Shown here piece by piece: positions 13,996 through 49,848 of a DNA stretch of 64,000 nucleotides. A program made the position numbers and the translations under genes. Below the pieces are notes generated by a model. It was not told the DNA's origin and searched no databases. It worked only from the letters and a program-made list of their open reading frames with translations. Origin of the DNA: Fistulifera solaris (taxonomy: Eukaryota); assembly GCA_030295235.1 (NCBI GenBank), contig AP026138.1, positions 124,001-188,000 of the forward strand, given 5' to 3'. How positions within the stretch are numbered: the stretch's first letter is position 1; each line of letters starts with the position of its first letter.

Positions 13996-14362
13996 GGTTT
14001 TTATGCGCAATGATTTTTACAAGAGGCGTGCTTTTGTATTTTGCAAGTTTTCTCTTGTTTACCAGGTAGTCTTTTTATACTGGACACAATCCTAAACATT
14101 TATTCGTAATTTCCTAAAGTCCGAATGAATTTTCTCATTCGACAGAATCCACTGTTTTTTCCTTTTGTCACAAATATCCCGGTTCCCGGTTCCGATCAGG
14201 GTGCTTGTCGGAAGTCTCTCCGTGACAGAATATGTACACTTAAAGCTTATATGACATGATTTTTACCGATAACGTTGAACTCCTACAGAACTGTATCAAC
14301 AAACATCCGGTTTTTAATCACGTTTTATCTCCTAAATAAAAATTTGGTTCATTCCTATGTAA

Positions 14363-15486
14363 TTATCCTTGTTGGCGTAGAGAGAGATTTCTCACTGTAG
14401 AGAGAAATTTCTCACTATAGAGAGAAATTGCTCTCTCAAAAGTGCATTTTTCTCCCTATAGAGAGAAATTGCTCTCTATAAAGAGAAATATCTCTCTAGC
14501 TCGATTGAGTAAGTAACGAAACTCAACAGCAATAACACGCTTTTCAATTAAGGTTTTTGCGTTTCAACGGAATCCGACGCAAACTCTCATCGCTCATCGC
14601 TCATCGCGTTCACATAATTCACAACACTCGCAAATCTCACTCGTTCAATCTTTTTATTTAGAAAAAGGCCCATTTAGACTATCCAAACAAGATAATCTTG
14701 AAAAATATCTATTGGGAATTCATAGGCAAATGCTGGTTCATGAAATCAGTGCGAAATGTAGATTGGGTTCTTTGACGGGCTCTCACACCGACGGCTCGTG
14801 GATGCGACCGTGAGTTTTCTATCGACCCAGCATCCAAAGCCAACAGGATAGACCTCTTGTTGGTCCTTTCCTTTCTTCTTTGCAGCAGCGTAACGTTCTT
14901 TCTCCCACTCCTTCGGTCAAAGAATCTTCTGGCTCTAAAGCTGCAATTTTTTCGAGTAAGAATCAAGTATTGCTGCTGATAAACGAAGCAGCCCCGGACC
15001 GCGTAAATTTGCCAGACTTCAGTCAGCATGGAAACAACACGCTTTGTTCAAGATGAGCCTCGGATCAAAAGTGCGCTTGTCACAATAAAACAATGGTGGT
15101 GGTGGTGAAATTGGCTCGTCGTAACCAGCACATGAAGCCAAGAATGGCACTCGGCCTGCAAACGCGCCATCCTTCTTTCCAGAGCTAAGCCCCAACAATC
15201 CTGTTGAAGGAGGTTGATTGATAATAAGTAATTAGAAGTGTTTGTGTAACTCCGAAGCCTTGTTTTTGTGTTGCGGTCGATTGCGGTCGCGATGAGAATT
15301 TTCGGTGATGCTTCATTTTTGGAAAAATCATAACCTTAATTGAAACCACAAGTAAGACACGGTTAAAATTTTGAAAGAGAGATTTTTCTCACTATAGAGA
15401 GAAAATGCTCTCTTGAGGGAGCATTTCTCTCTATAGAGAGAAATTTTTCTGTAGCTAATAAAGTACCAACACGTTTTAAGGGCTAA
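14363..15486. mobile_element. Probable non-autonomous (internally deleted) DNA transposon with long imperfect TIRs containing palindromic ~20-bp subrepeats
   Basis: Arrays of ~TATAGAGAGAAATTTCTCAC at 14377-14498 and 15374-15452 align in inverted orientation. Inner inverted matches are TTTCAATTAAGGTT (14542-14555) / AACCTTAATTGAAA (15332-15345) and AAACTCTCATCGC (14581) / GCGATGAGAATTT (15289). There is no intact transposase ORF and the exact termini are uncertain. Confidence 0.7.
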
Positions 15487-33638: not shown

Positions 33639-35026
33639 TTAACAAGAAATTCCCATAGACAACAAATAGCCACGCAAACCTTCCAAACGGGCATCCCCGG
33701 GCGTACAGCACCCGGCAATTACCACTTGGGTCAAGAGCTCGGCGACGCCTTGATCCCAGGCGTTTTCGAGACGGGCCTGTTCGAGTAACACCGCAATGGC
33801 GGGCATTCCTCGCGCCAACAAAAACAGAGAATCACTCCATTGCTGGCGTTCATAACTGGTCAAGGGAATGGGTGGGTACGTATAGTCGCCTTTCGCAGGA
33901 GCCATGGTACGAAATTGTTCGGGATGCAACGTCGCCCACGAAGAATCACTCAAGGCGGATGCGGGAGAATAAAACGACGGATCGGTGGCATCATTGTTCA
34001 TTTCTGTCAAGGCGGGAGCTTTCTGGCCGGGTTCGGCGGCCGCGTAGGCATGGACCGTCGGGTACACCATGACTCCGATGCTCCGTTGCAGGCTGTGTTT
34101 GCTGTCGTCCGAGCCGGGAGATTCCAAACGGAGTCGTTTGGACGGTGTTTCACTGTCCGGAACCGGTGGATTCTCTTCCACATCCCAACTGATGCGACGA
34201 TCATGAATGGTATAGCGTCGGGGCAGTACTTGTTCGTAGTGTTGTCGCGCTGTGTTAACACGTTTTTCACAAAAAATGGATCGTTTGTTGGGAAGTAAAC
34301 TACCTCCAAAGGCACAAACGGCAGCCTCCACGCGACGAGTGCCAATGATAATGTCATGATGATCCTGTTAAATGGTGTCGTGAGAATAAAATGCAATAGA
34401 GCGAAAGAAATGCCCAACAAGAATCACCTACCGTATTGCTCACTGGAGAGTCGTCTTCTCCACCACACGGAAGTAGATATGTGAGAGCGGAGAGCTGCTG
34501 ACGAACCGAGCGGAGGACGCCATACGGATCACAATAAAGCTTGAAATAAGAAGGGTCGCAATCGGGGGCAACGTACGACACTGCTGTCACACTAGATGGA
34601 TGGTTCGTTTCGTGTTTGGTGGGTGACGAGTCGCAGTTGTGTAGCATTTGAACCGGGGAGTCGTGCGAAGAGGCGTCTTCATCATCCGAGAAATGAAGTT
34701 TTGGGATTGTTATATTGGTCAGATTGAAATCGCTATTTTTGGGAAGCGTTGGCGACGCTACAGGATCCGAAAGACTGAATGTTGTGCTGTCCGTCGAAGA
34801 GAAACTTCGCTGTAGATCGGAAAGACTATCAAATGATTCATTTAATAAAGTGTTCGAGTAAGAGTCTGCGTTGTCTTTCGTCGAATCCGGAGAGTCCGCT
34901 TGAACGGCCTTCTATGATTATTATGGTCAGACAAGGCGGCGGAACAAGCACCAAACGGGGAAAACTTACCTTGGATGATTCTTCTTCATCGTTTTTCTTA
35001 CTGATATTCTTCGTAGGAGTATTCAT
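33639..35026 (-). CDS. Shorter tandem paralogue of the 30407-32860 gene (3 exons)
   Basis: Exon 1 35026-34970 (MNTPTKNISKKNDEEESSK), intron 34912-34969, exon 2 34911-34432, intron 34365-34431, exon 3 34364-33639, all phase 0 and in frame. It shares RRVE..CAFGG, SW..EE.PPV, SL.RSIGVMVYP, PEQFRT and AWD..VAEL.TQV...GLR.YLL..GI.C with the longer gene. Confidence 0.8.
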
Positions 35027-35374
35027 GGTGACAAACAAAAGTACAAAACAATGCGAGCGCCTAGTTGGAAGGCGAAAAAATGAAACTGCTTCGGACAACA
35101 TGTTGCTTTCCAACCGATCTCATTTCGCGCCATGTCGATTCTTGTCAATGCAAAAAATGAGCGCGAAACCATTTCTTGGTGGTCCATTCCCCTCCACGTT
35201 ATGTATTTGGAGCGGATTCAAATGTAAAGAGAGGAAATGGAATGTTCTCTTGTGTTCATGCAGAAATCGTGGGTCGAAATCTATCTTGCCGTACTCCTTC
35301 ACTTAGAGCAAAAAATTGTATGTTCTGTTAAGTACTTATTATCGGCTCTGCGACAATGGAGTTCACAAACTCAT

Positions 35375-35971
35375 TTCGTGATTCGTGACTCGTGACTAAC
35401 CAGTATTCAGTGTCCAGTGTCGTCCGGTGTCCAGTCAGTGTCCAGTGTCATCAGTCATCAGTCATCAGCAATCAGTCATTGCTTTTGAAGTACTCTATTA
35501 ATACAGTAAGTCATAAGTCATAATGTCAGTCTACATTCTAAATAGTGTATGTATATAGTATAGTAATTAGTAATATCATTCATTCTACCAGTGACCTATG
35601 ACCTATGACCTATGACTTCAAACTTCAAACATTCTACATTCTACGTGCTACGTGTACGTGGTACGTGCTACTTGCCACAGTACTTGCTACGCACTACGTA
35701 CTTGGTAGTACGTAGTACGGAGTACTACGTAGTTGTTAGTTGTTAGTTGTTACCGGTAAACGGTAAATCTTACAGGTCATAGTCATTCATATTTCAACAC
35801 AAATCTTTCACTCTTTCACTACTGTCACTACTTAATGAAATGACCTTCCATTATACCAGGTACCAGGGGCGGTCATCAGGTCACAAAGAATATGTGACAC
35901 GTGATATCAAAGATCAAAGATAAGAGATAAGCGTCGAGTTTTATAGTGCGGAATGCGGAATAAATGCGGAA
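35375..35971. repeat. Mosaic of many different tandemly duplicated 7-bp units
   Basis: Examples: TTCGTGA x~3, CAGTGTC x2 (twice), ATCAGTC x~4, ATAAGTC x~2, TGACCTA x3, ACTTCAA x2, ACATTCT x2, CTACGTG x~4, GTAGTAC x~3, TAGTTGT x3, CGGTAAA x2, TACCAGG x2, ATCAAAG x2, AGATAAG x2, TGCGGAA x2+1. Confidence 0.9.
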
Positions 35972-36080
35972 GTGGCCAATGCGACTGGTAAACGTTTGAA
36001 CCAGTCAAGGGGAAAACGTTCTTTGCTCTTTGACCGACTCGCAAAGCCAGCATTTGCTCTCTCACAATTAAAATTTAGAA

Positions 36081-36521
36081 ATGAACATGAATCTTCCTGA
36101 TCAACGCTTAGAAATAACAGTGTTACCTTTAGAGGTAATGAAGCTTGTGAGAGAAGCCAACAGCATTACAATTGTTGGCGACAATGCGCGGCGACCGTCA
36201 AGAGAGTATCGGATTACCAAAGTTCGATCGAATTCCACTTCCGACCCACTCAAATTGAAGGAAAAAATATTATCGCACCGTCGTGGTCTAATACGTCACT
36301 CATCGAATGATATTGGTTTCGATCGATGGGCGACGAGGAATCCGGATGAAGTTCCATCGCGCGCACCGCCGCGTCGGTCGGTGTCGGCGGATTTCGCACC
36401 ATCGTTGCCGACACGCCGTTCCTTTGAAAAATTAGAGACCATTGAGCAGCATTCGTCTTTGATGGACGCTCCTCCAGCCCTGTTTCCCAGAAGGAAGCCG
36501 TCGGTGCGAAAAATCGCCTGA
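36081..36521 (+). CDS. Hypothetical protein (146 aa)
   Basis: ATG ORF with an ITIVGDNAR motif and repeated P..P.R..S segments, of a kind seen in uncharacterised diatom proteins. Confidence 0.65.
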   Translation: MNMNLPDQRLEITVLPLEVMKLVREANSITIVGDNARRPSREYRITKVRSNSTSDPLKLKEKILSHRRGLIRHSSNDIGFDRWATRNPDEVPSRAPPRRSVSADFAPSLPTRRSFEKLETIEQHSSLMDAPPALFPRRKPSVRKIA

Positions 36522-37017
36522 TACCTTGTCAGTTCCAGGCTGATGTGCTCGCTCCAGTGCAATTTCTGCGTTGAGTGTTCCCGAATACACTACTATTCTT
36601 ATTTATAAATGATAAAGCAATAAAATGGCTGGTCTATTCTTCTATTCTGCCTTTTCTAACATGCAAAACGAACTCTACTTGGAACGTCCACGATGACGGC
36701 AAAATGTTTTCGATCAGTTGGTTGTAACCTTAACCCTAACACAAATGGAATGCATTGTATCCTCTCCTTCCGGGTAACGTACAGACGCTTTTAAATAGTT
36801 ACCGTTGAAACGCAGGCAGCACAAATCGCATTGAATAAATCTAGTTATTTGAAACATTTAGTACCTTGTTGTTTATACTACGATAGATTCCGTTGGTGAT
36901 CTCGGCTCGCGCAACACGAACACCATCAAGCAAAGAAACAGGTACATTCTCACGCCTTCTACTCTTGTGATAGATCATTGCCTTGAAGGAAGCACACAAA
37001 GCTACCCGTCATTCACC

Positions 37018-39397
37018 ATGATCGCAATGAGTCAAGACGCCGGTCGATTTCGCCCTCCGCGTCCTTCTACCGTCGGCATTCAACAATCGAACTTTGGTGG
37101 TGGCCGTCACCGCAACCGACGTCGATCTTCGGCTCGATTCTTACAACTCCACAATCGTGGTGGGGCGATTCATGAGGAAGAAACGGAAGAACAGACGGAA
37201 GACAGCAACAACTCTGGAAATTTGCAGGAACTCTACAAGAAGGTGATTCGTATGAATGCGGAGAATAAAATCAATGCGAGTAATAGTTGGTCTCTTCGTC
37301 TTATTGAAAATATTGACACGTTCCTGGAAGAAGACGAAGAGAATGAGTCGAGCGAGGATGAAGAGGAAAAAGAGGAAGATGTTAACAAGGAAAATGCTGG
37401 CACCCTTGTCCCCAAACGTGTCAATTTCACCAAGGCATCGTGCACTTTGGATGCCAGCGTCAAAATCTATTCGTATCGCGTCGATGATGTCCATCTGACC
37501 TCGTACAAGGTGCTCGCAAATCTTCATCGGAACAGCAACAAGGACGACACGGCGCCAGTTTCGTCGAATCGTGACAACCAGGAGGAAGCTACCGGTGATG
37601 AACCGGAAGAAAAAGGACCCGAGAAATCGTCCGGAAACGCACCGACACTGGAGCAAAACATTGGTGCGTTTAAATGTTTTGTTCATGTTGCTTTGTGCGC
37701 TACTCCTTACACCGTCACAATACTGACCTACTCTTTCTCAATTATTTTCAGCCAACATCAACTTGAGCAAGCTCGACTCCGCATTCGATATTGATCCTTT
37801 GTTTTCCAAAATGTCAAAGGCATTTGATGAGGGTGGTGCGAAAGGGCTCTTGTTGGTCAATCTGGGTGTGAGCTCCAATGGTTGCAACATTGTTTTCGAT
37901 AGTAAGGCCGAAGCGGACTTGGATGAAGAGACCGATAACGATCACACTGCGGAAAACGATAAACTGATTGATATTTCTATTCTTATTGACAAGTTGAAAG
38001 AGCAAACCGCGACAGACGATGCGAGAGACATGTTGGCTGCACTTGAAGACTTGCCCCTCGTGCCGCAGCTGTCAGAATTGCGGGCTGAGCACGCTGTTTT
38101 GGAGTCCCAAGGGTTTACCGTCGGTGAAAGTACTGACGATATGGAACGAAAACGTGGTCATTATTTCCAAGTCAGCGAAGAGGAAGAGAAAGAGGCCGAT
38201 CGAAGCATTCACCAAGATGCCTTAGAGCGCAGTCGCGCTAGTCAGGGCCGCCCGTCGTTCTTAGGAAGCGAGGCCGGAGAAGAAATGTCGTACGGTGACG
38301 ACAACGTCTTTGCGGGTGACAATGACGATGATGATGACTTTGGCGGTGATGGCATGTTTCTGAATGTGACGCCGCAGCGCGCGTCATCGTTCTCGGGTAA
38401 CTCTGTCATTGAGACTGATTATGAGACCCGCACTCAAAATCAAGCGACATCGAACTTCCTGGACATGCTTTCGAGCACACATGATTTTTGGTCAACAGAT
38501 AACGATACTCAATTCTTCAATCCCGATCTGTTCGCCTCACAAGGACAGAATCATTGGGCGGGTGTATCCCATTGGAATGCTGGGAAGAAACCAGTTGGAA
38601 ACAAGACGACCGCAACGAAAGAGAAGAATACGAATGCGCCTCGAAGCGAACGAAAGACGCGCAAAAAGCACATGGTCGACTTTTCGAAGCCTCCGAAAGG
38701 TTTCGATTTTGAAGTCGGGCAAGGCTTGACGTGGAGTAGTGCCACTATTGCCAAGCACAGCCGGAACGAGAATGTGCTGCCACTAGATGCTGGTATCTTG
38801 TCGTTGAAGCAACTTCAATCTCTTTTTCTTCGCCCTACACTAACGATCCCATCTAAAGATCAGAATCGGAGTAAGAAAGCTGTGGGTTTTGCCGACACTG
38901 ACGATTGGGATACTGGAGGTGGTTTTGATGACGGGGATGACGACGACGACGGTCCGGGATTCTTCATGTCTTCCAATGATGACGAGGTTGACAAAGAAGA
39001 CGACGACTTTATTCGTGAACTGGAAGGGGTTCGTAAAGTTGAAAAAGTACAAGTGGGCTACGCAACAATTGCAAAGAAAGTCGATGTGAAGAAATTGAAA
39101 ACGGATTTGTGGAAGGAACTCGAGTCGAAGTTTTCTGTCATGAGAAAAGATGACGATGCAATGGATGGCGACGAAAGTGAAGACGAGACCATGGCAGAGC
39201 AGCCTTCTACTGTCCTTTCATTTAAAGAAGCCGTCCAGAACATGGAAGCAAGCAAGTCTCAGTCCGACGTGACGCTACCCTTTTACTTCATTTGCATCCT
39301 TCACTTAGCCAATGAGAAGGGTCTGCGCCTCGTCGACAAGGGACTCGACGAATTTGAGATCATCCACGAGGGGCTCAAGTCATCGTCGAACTTTTGA
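37018..39397 (+). CDS. NCAPH: Condensin I kleisin subunit CAP-H (barren / condensin complex subunit 2)
   Basis: MNAENKINASNSWSL, NFTKASCTLDASVKIYSYRVDDVH, DPLFSKMSKAFDEGGAKGLL, YATIAKKVDVKKLK and FICILHLANEKGL. GT-AG intron at 37664-37751. Confidence 0.95.
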
Positions 39398-46556: not shown

Positions 46557-47481
46557 ATGAATGCGTTTCGTCTTGCGAATCGTTTGGTTCCACGAACCAT
46601 GGGCGCTATGCGCTCTTCTTCTCGTATATTAGGAACAACAAGTGAGTATTGAGAGTGAAAGTAAAGAAGAGGAAAATAAAAATTGCATCGCAAGGAAAAT
46701 AATCTTCGCTTTTTGGCGTTGCTGCGGTATTTTTACCGTAGGAAACGTACAGCAGGACGAACCCCCGTTCAAAAATACCTCAATCATCGGCACTTGACAT
46801 CAGGAACACATCGTCTGACTCTTTCTTTCTCTTTTTCTTTCTCTCTCATTTCACTATAATAATTAGACGCTCTTCGTCACTTGTCGGTTCCCGCCACACA
46901 AACCACACAAGCACTCGATCAATTGGGCAGCGTCGATCACGAGTACGAATCGACCCGCGTCGACCGCGTCGCCGAACCGGATCGTCGCGCCTTTACTTAC
47001 CTGATGTTGTCGTCGGTCCAGTTTGTGTACGCATCCGCGGCCCGTCTCCTCGTGGTCAAATTGGTGGCCTCCATGGCACCGTCGGCCGAAGTCTTGGCGT
47101 TGGCGTTTGGGGAATTTGATCTGTCCGCACTCGAAGTCGGCAAGACGATTATGGTCGATTGGCGTGGCAAACCCATTTACATTCGACGCCGATCGGTGGC
47201 GGAGATTGAAAAAAGAATCGCAAGTGCAGTTGGATCATTTGCGAGATCAGGAAGCCGACAGTGATCGTACCATCAAGCCGGAGTTTTTGGTGGTGGTTGG
47301 TATTTGTCCGCATTTGGGATGTGTGCCCTTGCCCAACGCGGGAGACTTTGGTGGATTCTTTTGCCCCTGCCACGGATCGCACTACGATGTCAGTGGACGC
47401 ATCCGTATGGGACCGGCGCCGTTGAACTTGGAAGTTCCGCCGTACAAATTCATTTCGGACACGACAGTTCTAATTGGTTAG
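46557..47481 (+). CDS. UQCRFS1: Mitochondrial cytochrome bc1 Rieske iron-sulfur protein
   Basis: Arg-rich presequence [14 protein letters not shown] intron 46642-46866; RRAFTY TM region; [17 protein letters not shown] and [19 protein letters not shown]. An A-run frameshift occurs near 47210. Confidence 0.95.
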
Positions 47482-47660
47482 ATGCCATACCAGGTTTTAC
47501 AGGATTGCCGTTCGTAGTCCTAGAATAACTAGTCAAGCAATTCGAATTATCTTTACACATTTGCTTTTTGTATGACGTCACCACAGTACAAATCCTTTAA
47601 AAAGCGTACGTCTTAATTTGGAGCAAAAGAAAAGCTGCTTTATCGCATTAAAATTGTTCT

Positions 47661-49056
47661 TCAATTGGGTCGTTTTGTCATCACTTGACTCAATCGTTTT
47701 CGTGTCATGTGATCGGACTTGGAAAGGGGATCCACGTTGTGTCGTGTGCTGCTGGAAGGAGAAACATGGTCCGAATTCGACAAGCGTTTGCAGACACTCG
47801 CTTTGCGCACCAGAGATGCCATCGGATGACTGGGCGATGGTTTGGTAGTTTTTCGACTAACGACCGATCGCTCGTCGCTGTATCTGTCAGGCTTGGACTT
47901 GCGAGTGGAGCCTGTAGTACTCTCATTGGAGTTCTTCATTTTGTTCTTCAACATGTCGTTCCCCGTCAAACTCTTGGAACGTCGACGAGTTGCTACGGAG
48001 CGGTCATCACACCGTCGACGGGGTGATACAGAGCGGTCGTCGGTGCGTTTCGAGCTCTGAACGGCACGACTTTTGACTGTTGCCGTGTCGTCGTCGACAC
48101 GACTTGTTCTCCTTTGTCGACGAGGAGATTCAATGCCTTCTAGAGTGGTGCGTCGCGGTGATACCGTTCGTCGTCGGGGAGACTCCTCGGGTCGCCGAGA
48201 CGGCTTCTCACTCGAAATTTCTTGCTTTTTCTTCACAGGCCTCTTTTGTAACACCGCTTTTGCAACATCATCTTGTCCCTGAGAGGAAGCGACCACCATC
48301 TTTTTCCCTCTTCTTTTATATTCCGAGGGATCACTCACGAGTTCACCACTGCTGCCTTTGCTTTCTTCCGAGAAATCATGCATCAGATCCAGCGACATTA
48401 CCGACGCTGGACCCTGCGCATCGGGTCGTATTGCCCGCGTTCGTCGACGAGGTGAATTCACGCGACCGAGAGATTTGACGGACATTCGTTGTCGAACTTT
48501 GATCGGCGATGCTACGACTTCGGGCTTCACTTTCTCTTTTGTCGTGCCACCTCTTTCGCCCGTGACTTCGGGGCGGTGTCACGTGGGGGAGGAAGAATAC
48601 CCGATGTGGAAGATGAAACGGAATTGTCATCATCTTCTATCTGTTGTGGTCTTTGCGAAACTAGATCGAGTGTTGCTATGGATTTCGGTTTGTTAAAAAA
48701 GTGTATGCTATCCTGAAATGCCCCAATATCACTTCCGAACAAATCTTCAAACGAGCAATTGAACTTCTCAAATGCTGTTTGACTGCTTTTGGGTTTTCCC
48801 TCTCGTTTCTTTTTTTCGATCGGCCATCGCCCCTTGCAAAAAAGCCGAGAAATTGTCTTTCGAGACGTCGGCTTGATAGAGCAAGTCCTCGATTGCCGCA
48901 GCTACGTCGTCCAGCTTCAGTTGCCCTTTGCCAAAAGTGTGGCGAGTTTCCTGCATTATCATGTTTGCCTTTTAGGTGAAGTTGGTGTTGCTCTTCAAAT
49001 GGAGCAAAAGGGCGTTTGCCTCATTCGGCCATCTTTCGGTGAGGACGTGACGACAT
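47661..49056 (-). CDS. Ser/Arg-rich low-complexity hypothetical protein (fragmented; 5' structure uncertain)
   Basis: 289-aa ORF with SPRR repeats, plus upstream same-strand ORF pieces (48527-48742, 48768-48962) that appear to join across A-runs. Confidence 0.5.
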
Positions 49057-49848
49057 AATAATTCGTGAACCAAACTGTTTTTTTTTTTCCTGTGCCATTT
49101 TCGAATGAGAATGAGCGATTAACTTTTCATGTTTTCTGAGTAATTCTGTACAGAAAGAAGAACTTAGGTTGTAAGATATGACACAATAGCTATACTGTCC
49201 CAGAATCTCAATAAGTCTTTGTTTCCCGATTAGTTCCCAAATCCCGAGGCCCAAGGTCAATAGTCAAGTAGTAATAGAATGAGGGCAATATTAAAGAAGA
49301 CACAGAAAACAGAAAGTGTAAGTTGGCCTCGCAATCCGCTTCAATAATTAACGAATACATAACGCTCTGGGCCGGTTTTTGTTCACGATTACCGATAACT
49401 GTTTTTGTGATCTGTGCACTGTGCACTATGGACTGTCATTCGGTGTGAGATGTGAGGCGTCGTCGCAGCGTCAAGAAGCAAGAAGTGAAAAGTGAAACGC
49501 CGCAAACTCCAAAACCCAAAACAGCCTGTTGTTCTCGATTTAGTTCAAAGTTCAAAAATCATCAACAGCTCTGCAGAAGTACTCGTAGACTGTAGAGAAT
49601 TATAGCCTCGCTTGAGCCTTGATACTAGGTAGCTCGTTCCTCACCACCTGTTCCATCGTCTCCACAAATGGGAGCATCAAACAGTCATTCAAAGAGCCTC
49701 TCTAGCTCAAGAGCTACTGGTACCCTTTATGAAAAGGGTTCGAAGTATTGCCTTAGTCTTAGCTATAGAGCATAAAGTGGTAAAATCTAAAAAGGTTCGG
49801 GAGATGATGTTAACGGGAGTAGAATCTTTCAAAAAACACCCTTGTCAT

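Follow-up and report, generated by a model that had tools for sequence, protein, structure and literature searches.

The window, i.e., the whole 64-kb stretch of DNA analysed here, is nuclear DNA of a pennate diatom; its HSP70-like ORF was 93% identical to the best named match, which belongs to Fistulifera solaris. It is gene-dense and carries ordinary housekeeping genes. A second copy, ca. 15% diverged, was present in the same sequencing run that held 98% of the sampled words, which fits an allodiploid. The locus of interest is a spacer between two divergent genes and comprises the following features.

33639..35026, minus strand: left flanking gene, multi-exon, with its ATG at 35026 and an intron near 34916–34983.
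35027..36080, unstranded: divergent intergenic spacer holding the patch; GC ~0.40; 1,054 bp (774 bp in the per-spacer run counts).
35375..35971, unstranded: heptamer stutter patch, with 19 exact runs of different 7-bp units, 22 extra copies and older imperfect doublets.
35592..35667, unstranded: micro-hotspot of five abutting or overlapping runs (TGACCTA x3.6, ACTTCAA x2.3, ACATTCT x2.3, CTACGTG x2 and GTACGTG x2).
36081..36521, plus strand: right flanking ORF of ~146 aa, starting at 36081.
From ~37018, downstream of the 36081..36521 ORF: condensin subunit 2 gene.

The DNA letters at 35375–35971 matched the earlier description on direct reading of the window, and the divergent setting between genes starting at 35026 (minus strand) and 36081 (plus strand) agreed with the reading frames. 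In the left flanking gene, the homoeolog contig has 71 other letters where the window has the 68 of the intron near 34916–34983. No Rfam family was detected in the patch spacer, where the best candidate, SCARNA7, was sub-threshold (17.5 bits vs. a gathering score of 65). The AT-richness remarked upon in the original prediction was present in that the spacer GC was below that of coding DNA (0.40 vs. 0.47 overall), but it was ordinary among the spacers of this window, which ranged from 0.34 to 0.50. A centromeric or origin role, which had been considered conceivable, gained no support from this ordinary composition, and the lowest-GC stretch of the window lies elsewhere, at ~13.5–15 kb. According to the accessible part of a nanopore preprint on F. 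solaris (10.1101/2021.11.10.468027), diatom centromeres are low-GC segments of 1.4–2 kb, one per chromosome, rich in 100-bp windows with a GC of 32% or less, and small-scale repeats are reported in some of them. The 1.5 kb centred on the patch had a GC of 0.427, compared with the window minimum of 0.397 at ~14 kb, and contained 134 such low-GC 100-bp windows, compared with 252 at 14001. The spacer at ~13.5–15 kb, with the most 100-bp windows of this kind, would thus be a better centromere or origin candidate than the patch; it also carries a 20-bp tandem repeat (14378–14498, six copies, 75% matches).

The heptamer stutter itself is real and statistically very strong. Lag-7 identity in the patch was 0.529, compared with 0.261 ± 0.018 in 500 dinucleotide-preserving shuffles (z 14.7), none of which exceeded 0.31, and lags 2–6 and 8–13 were at or under background. 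A sharp lag-7 peak against shuffled controls had been set beforehand as the check, and a sliding lag-7 scan of the whole window likewise had its maximum (0.66–0.71) in the patch. Between 35375 and 35961, there were 19 exact runs of 7-bp units (16 doublets and 3 triplets, the longest with 3.6 copies), and Tandem Repeats Finder reported 12 separate period-7 arrays in the patch. All 13 heptamers named in the original prediction were found as exact adjacent copies (ATCAGTC as its rotation GTCATCA), but no run reached the four exact copies that had been given as the upper limit. Collapsing the exact 7-bp runs in 35301–36050 removed 22 copies and shortened the segment from 750 to 596 bp; collapsing 5-, 6- and 8-bp units removed 2, 1 and 1 copies, respectively. 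Rare departures from the 7-bp rule were seen at 35804–35832, where TCTTTCAC x2.1 (8 bp) and TCACTACTG x2.9 (9 bp) interlock. The runs consist of 19 different heptamers, in line with the claim that the units are unrelated, but some neighbours are partly alike. After removal of the exact copies, the residue retained a lag-7 identity of 0.362 (vs. 0.262, z 4.8), indicative of an earlier layer of 7-bp doublets that has since decayed. Iterative collapse of the patch exposed no second round of exact copies.

Independent contigs indicated that the patch is no assembly quirk of this record. In run X1, possibly the source sample, one contig spans 34804–36332 with 0 other letters and 1 gap. In run X2, a metagenome from another study, the contigs were ~99% identical, one lying over 34630–35557 (4 other letters, 10 gap letters) and a second over 35610–37455 (9 other letters, 1 gap). 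The former has 932 letters on 928 positions and 10 gap letters, a balance that is compatible with changes of +7 and −3 without proving them. The alignments of contigs to the window gave 331 indel rows, and the 12 listed all lay outside the patch. The X2 contigs break at 35557–35610, inside the patch, with loose ends and odd joints at 35447–35480; that assemblers broke contigs here implies that such regions are prone to misassembly. The summed contig depth in X2 was 113 at 35337–36003 and 84 at 47343–48009, compared with ~12–30 elsewhere; short repeats here attract unrelated contigs.

The 7-bp signal was not restricted to the patch. In the non-ORF DNA of the window (18,253 bp, ORFs of at least 120 aa being excluded), exact tandem duplications of 7-bp units numbered 39 against 1.3 expected. 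The corresponding counts were 98 against 59.1 for 4 bp, 23 against 17.7 for 5 bp, 8 against 4.5 for 6 bp and 4 against 0.3 for 8 bp, with none at 9–12 bp. Over the whole window, 44 exact 7-bp duplications were observed where ~4.1 were expected, five of them in ORF-covered DNA; 5-bp units were at expectation (58 vs. 55), and the census contained no exact duplications of 14-bp units. These counts support the idea of a length-specific process that has repeatedly duplicated 7 bp. The original prediction was nevertheless wrong in treating this process as peculiar to the patch site, since 25 of the 44 duplications lie outside it. Thus, a 7-bp-specific duplication process very probably acts window-wide, and the patch is its hotspot. 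The other places where it is visible include the following.

4309..5045, unstranded: third cluster, six different exact 7-bp runs, between the gene starting at 3633 (minus strand) and an ISWI-type gene (plus strand).
14586..14607, unstranded: isolated triplet CTCATCG x3.1, one example of the scattered 7-bp runs.
49302..49556, unstranded: second cluster, six different exact 7-bp doublets, in the spacer 48486–49848, upstream of the gene starting at 48485 (minus strand).

Four runs of the third cluster are inside the spacer 3634–4933 and two just beyond it, and 13 further 7-bp runs are scattered outside the three clusters. The spread was very uneven: the patch spacer held 19 runs, most other spacers of 300 bp or more held none, and a few spacers were 10–40 times more densely hit than others. 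A homoeolog-like contig of X1 joins 48967 to 49837, skipping 869 bases that include the second cluster, and this spacer therefore differs grossly between the two subgenomes. The 4-bp excess in non-ORF DNA is separate from the 7-bp one, giving two modes; a 4-bp mode is the expected product of topoisomerase II-type fill-in or of ordinary slippage.

A condensin profile search of metagenome contigs provided related loci for comparison (62 loci, 417,572 bp, best condensin match 54%), a set in which the contigs encoding 100%- and 90%-identical condensin proteins were absent. When the 62 loci were pooled against a shuffle null, 7-bp duplications numbered 113 against 36.2 expected and 8-bp duplications 24 against 8.4, so that 7 bp was not uniquely enriched; an internal lag control gave 105 at lag 7 compared with 36–74 at neighbouring lags other than multiples of 3. 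Dropping 16 near-identical loci left 46 non-redundant loci (293 kb). Clades were taken from the topology alone of a midpoint-rooted FastTree of condensin, for which 47 of the 62 loci had enough aligned residues. An Attheya-containing clade (nine loci, 67 kb) had 32 exact 7-bp duplications against 6.1 expected (P 1.6e-13), with small stutter clusters in two of its loci (L018, 13413–13682; L059, 1894–1924). Raphid pennates had 19 against 8.9 at lag 7, yet 20 at lag 8, which is not specific. The counts at lag 7 were 9 against 4.8 in Thalassiosirales and 3 against 3.4 in the window's own wider group among these loci. The 7-bp signature is lineage-patchy and was seen in two separate lineages.

The structure of the duplications bears on how they arise. 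At lag 7, there were 44 exact direct repeats at least 7 nt long against 4.6 expected, and the same test gave 7, 6, 6 and 5 at lags 8, 10, 11 and 13 (expected: 4.1, 4.7, 4.7 and 4.6). With lags 8–13 at background, and hence no excess of pairs separated by 1–6 bases, the 7-bp copies abut without filler bases. Among the 39 doublets, the overhang beyond 2 × 7 was r = 0, 1, 2 and 3 or more in 22, 8, 5 and 4 cases, compared with chance values of 21.6, 11.1, 4.2 and 2.1 (P 0.45), which implies that the window doublets have no junction microhomology; the Attheya-like clade gave P 0.078, overhangs of r = 3 or more being slightly over-represented. Simple doublets accounted for 39 of the 44 runs and near-triplets for the remaining 5. 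Given this dominance of doublets and the lack of both four-copy runs and 14-bp units, new duplications rather than array expansion prevail. Some runs overlap in shifted frames (e.g., 35375/35383 and 35906/35918), as expected from independent 7-bp events at arbitrary offsets. No target motif was apparent by eye in the small sample of 22 unique-phase events. Processive stutter was considered for the chain of abutting doublets at 35592–35667 and set aside, as on a rough estimate the density was not clearly beyond clustering in a very hot patch.

These features make it improbable that the doublets are replication errors with a 7-nt ruler, whether through slippage, re-ligation of primer-length Okazaki flaps or polymerase-theta template switching. 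In favour of such an origin, short insertions in many genomes are most often tandem duplications, and the RNA primers of eukaryotic primase begin at ~7 nt; the 4-bp excess (98 vs. 59) likewise indicates that ordinary short-duplication processes also act here. However, slippage, flap and template-switching routes require junction microhomology and yield broad, decaying length spectra. Neither was found: microhomology in the window was at chance, and the non-ORF census had a single sharp peak at 7 bp, 5-bp units lying at background and units of 9 bp or longer being absent. Slippage also rises with copy number, yet doublets dominate, and a universal cause is ill-suited to the patchy lineage distribution.

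Microsatellites and minisatellites with variant repeats resemble the present case in being short head-to-tail repeats in non-coding DNA, some with three copies and some imperfect. They differ in that many unrelated units here share one period, doublets dominate, and there is neither a copy-number tail nor long-range periodicity: the 19 exact runs of the patch have different units, and the collapsed patch gave only z 1.0 at lag 14 and z 1.5 at lag 28, with a weak signal at lag 21 (z 2.2). An old heptanucleotide satellite, i.e., one ancestral 7-bp array that was point-mutated and locally re-homogenised so that the period reflects no more than whichever unit founded the array, could account for the common AC.T skeleton of the in-phase units at 35594–35650, for the residual lag-7 identity of the collapsed patch and for its weak lag-21 signal. 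This origin is already disfavoured and appears very improbable, since the collapsed patch has no lag-14 signal, and since the 25 unrelated exact doublets elsewhere in the window and the same excess in other diatoms are left unexplained. Elsewhere in the window, a compound perfect trinucleotide array, (GAC)9.7 (GAG)11.7 (GAA)23, occurs at 12677–12805, just downstream of a Brix-domain ORF (11508–12518).

The doublets are young or short-lived, as the excess was confined to exact copies. Exact lag-7 pairs in the window numbered 48 compared with 6.5 at control lags, while pairs with one mismatch (71 vs. 65.6) and two mismatches (329 vs. 336) were close to their controls. The Attheya-like clade had the same age pattern, with 32 exact pairs against 6.2 and 69 one-mismatch pairs against 74.8. 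If pairs evolve neutrally, the ratio of the one-mismatch excess to the exact excess (~5.4/41.5) would place the mean doublet age near 1% divergence per site. The homoeologous copies immediately left of the patch are ~15% different (46 other letters and 9 gap letters over 34984–35291), and the doublets would thus be far younger than the homoeolog difference. Such youth implies a recent process or a rapid loss of doublets. At 35291, the homoeologous spacer leaves the alignment (80% likeness); both this loss and the weak older layer in the patch fit fast turnover. Under a steady-state neutral model, by our own arithmetic, each non-coding site would gain roughly 0.2 duplications for every substitution, and each site in the patch more than 2.

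Another possibility is that direct heptamer pairs are kept by selection as sites for tandem-binding transcription factors. A location in spacers adjoining gene starts would suit such a regulatory architecture, but the units are diverse and without a common motif, the lack of a one-mismatch excess means that nothing is conserved over time, and beyond 35291 the homoeologous spacer can no longer be aligned at 80% likeness. We therefore give this explanation hardly any credence.

A mobile element is a more serious candidate, although we still consider it unlikely. A cut-and-paste element with 7-bp target-site duplications, perhaps hopping locally, could have entered accessible spacers and later been excised flush, with the target copies joined. 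The target-site duplications of DDE transposases and integrases have a fixed length that is set by the stagger of strand cleavage, show sharp lengths with minor shoulders of one base either way and prefer spacers near genes. The same traits were found here: the non-ORF duplications have one dominant length (39 against 1.3 expected) with small shoulders at 6 bp (8 against 4.5) and 8 bp (4 against 0.3), and they cluster in spacers adjoining gene starts. Eukaryotic families with duplications of this length exist, judging from partial accounts of Galileo and the P superfamily (7 bp) and of Dada (6–7 bp). A patchy distribution among lineages is in keeping with a mobile agent, and the chain of abutting doublets at 35592–35667 could be the trail of a walking element. 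Unlike at known insertion sites, however, no element lies between the copies, and no 7-bp-flanked element was found in the 64 kb of the window and the 293 kb of related contigs. The window contained 0 terminal-inverted-repeat elements with 7-bp flanking repeats, the 46 non-redundant loci yielded one candidate, which was a trinucleotide-repeat artefact, and the 38 window ORFs scanned included no transposase family. Moreover, when hAT, P and Tc1 elements excise, filler or nibbled bases are usually left in the footprint, yet the copies here abut perfectly, with lags 8–13 at background. The diatom transposons described in the parts of the literature accessible to us (CryptonS and MULEs) do not fit a 7-bp length either. 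CryptonS elements of diatoms are described with 5–6-bp terminal direct repeats, mostly TATGG, with Cryptons reported in one diatom; duplications of the MULE superfamily are 8–11 bp, the passages in question giving no length for diatom MULEs. The accessible portion of a further account of diatom transposons (PMC2806351) likewise offers no fit to 7-bp duplications.

The explanation that we favour, at a probability somewhat short of even, is that an enzyme cuts with a 7-nt stagger, after which fill-in and blunt rejoining of the ends leave a 7-bp tandem duplication. This reading draws on the sharp ruler, the blunt junctions, the absence of microhomology and the arbitrary targets. The candidate enzyme would nick both strands 7 nt apart and leave 5' overhangs; fill-in of these, followed by end joining of the resulting blunt ends, would convert the stagger into a tandem duplication. 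Repeated hits at one spacer would accumulate as a stutter of unrelated doublets, the copies of which would soon be lost again or decay. A transposase/integrase-like or recombinase-like activity on accessible spacer DNA seems the likeliest class of enzyme. Transposon target-site duplications arise through the same geometry of staggered double cut and fill-in. As fill-in would predict, each duplication is an exact abutting copy of one fixed length with no inserted DNA, and junction microhomology is not enriched in the window (P 0.45). Among the three mechanisms named in the original prediction, fill-in of 7-nt staggered cuts thus fits best; an element with 7-bp target-site duplications is weakened by the lack of filler and of any such element in the DNA searched, and slippage by chance-level microhomology and the dominance of doublets. 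Against fill-in, we know of no cellular nuclease or topoisomerase that has a 7-nt stagger and acts without sequence specificity, and transposases cut target DNA solely during element insertion.

Known systems provide partial parallels to cutting and fill-in. The crossover regions of tyrosine recombinases (6–8 bp, 7 bp in the case of lambda integrase) are similar to the present proposal in that two cleavages 6–8 bp apart leave a 5' stagger. These enzymes are sequence-specific, however, and a motif of the TATGG type, the one given for CryptonS in the sections accessible to us, was not seen in the heptamers here. To our knowledge, no topoisomerase has a 7-nt stagger. Duplications of 2–4 bp made by Top2 and NHEJ in yeast and human tumours and the +1 insertions at staggered Cas9 cuts are nonetheless similar to the 7-bp doublets in that the exact tandem copy corresponds to a 5' overhang, microhomology is unneeded, no element is inserted and arbitrary scattered sequences are affected. 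They differ in length (4 bp or less, compared with 7 bp here) and in setting, as they come from mutant or drug-treated cells, whereas the present duplications are a standing feature of wild genomes. The accessible text of one study describes how a 5'-staggered break filled in by c-NHEJ gives a templated insertion, with a 1-bp case at staggered Cas9 cuts (PMC13269935), and that of another how trapped Top2 leads to de novo duplications of 2–4 bp via NHEJ (bioRxiv 10.1101/2020.05.03.075358).

The signature rests on the 64-kb window and 293 kb of non-redundant related contigs. As a rule, indel spectra taper off gradually with increasing length. An isolated sharp spike at 7 bp, where junctions are blunt and no element is resident, points towards one particular enzyme at work on the genome; we know of no such enzyme described in diatoms. 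Nor did a search of the openly accessible literature yield any published account of a 7-bp-specific duplication signature in this group. More tentatively, a DNA-cutting activity that has gone unrecognised, perhaps that of a domesticated transposase, integrase or recombinase, might be active in some diatom lineages, making 7-nt staggered breaks in accessible spacers with nothing inserted. By writing and erasing 7-bp duplications at a high rate, such an activity might contribute to promoter variation on a scale comparable with point mutation, a possibility we regard as open to considerable doubt. If confirmed genome-wide, the pattern would amount to a new mutational signature of natural origin, and the responsible gene could be sought by using it as a marker in comparisons of diatoms with and without it. 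Confirmation would also mean that 7-bp tandem doublets are a frequent class of polymorphism in non-coding DNA, and it would explain why some diatom promoters diverge so rapidly that their homoeologous copies in the present allodiploid can no longer be aligned.

The condensin subunit 2 ORF (37811–39397) had a 100%-identical counterpart among the proteins of a 22-kb contig (sources: NCBI and JGI), and 73% of the words sampled from the patch region occurred in a wetland metagenome run; together, these matches indicate that the organism, or a very close strain, occurs in environmental samples.
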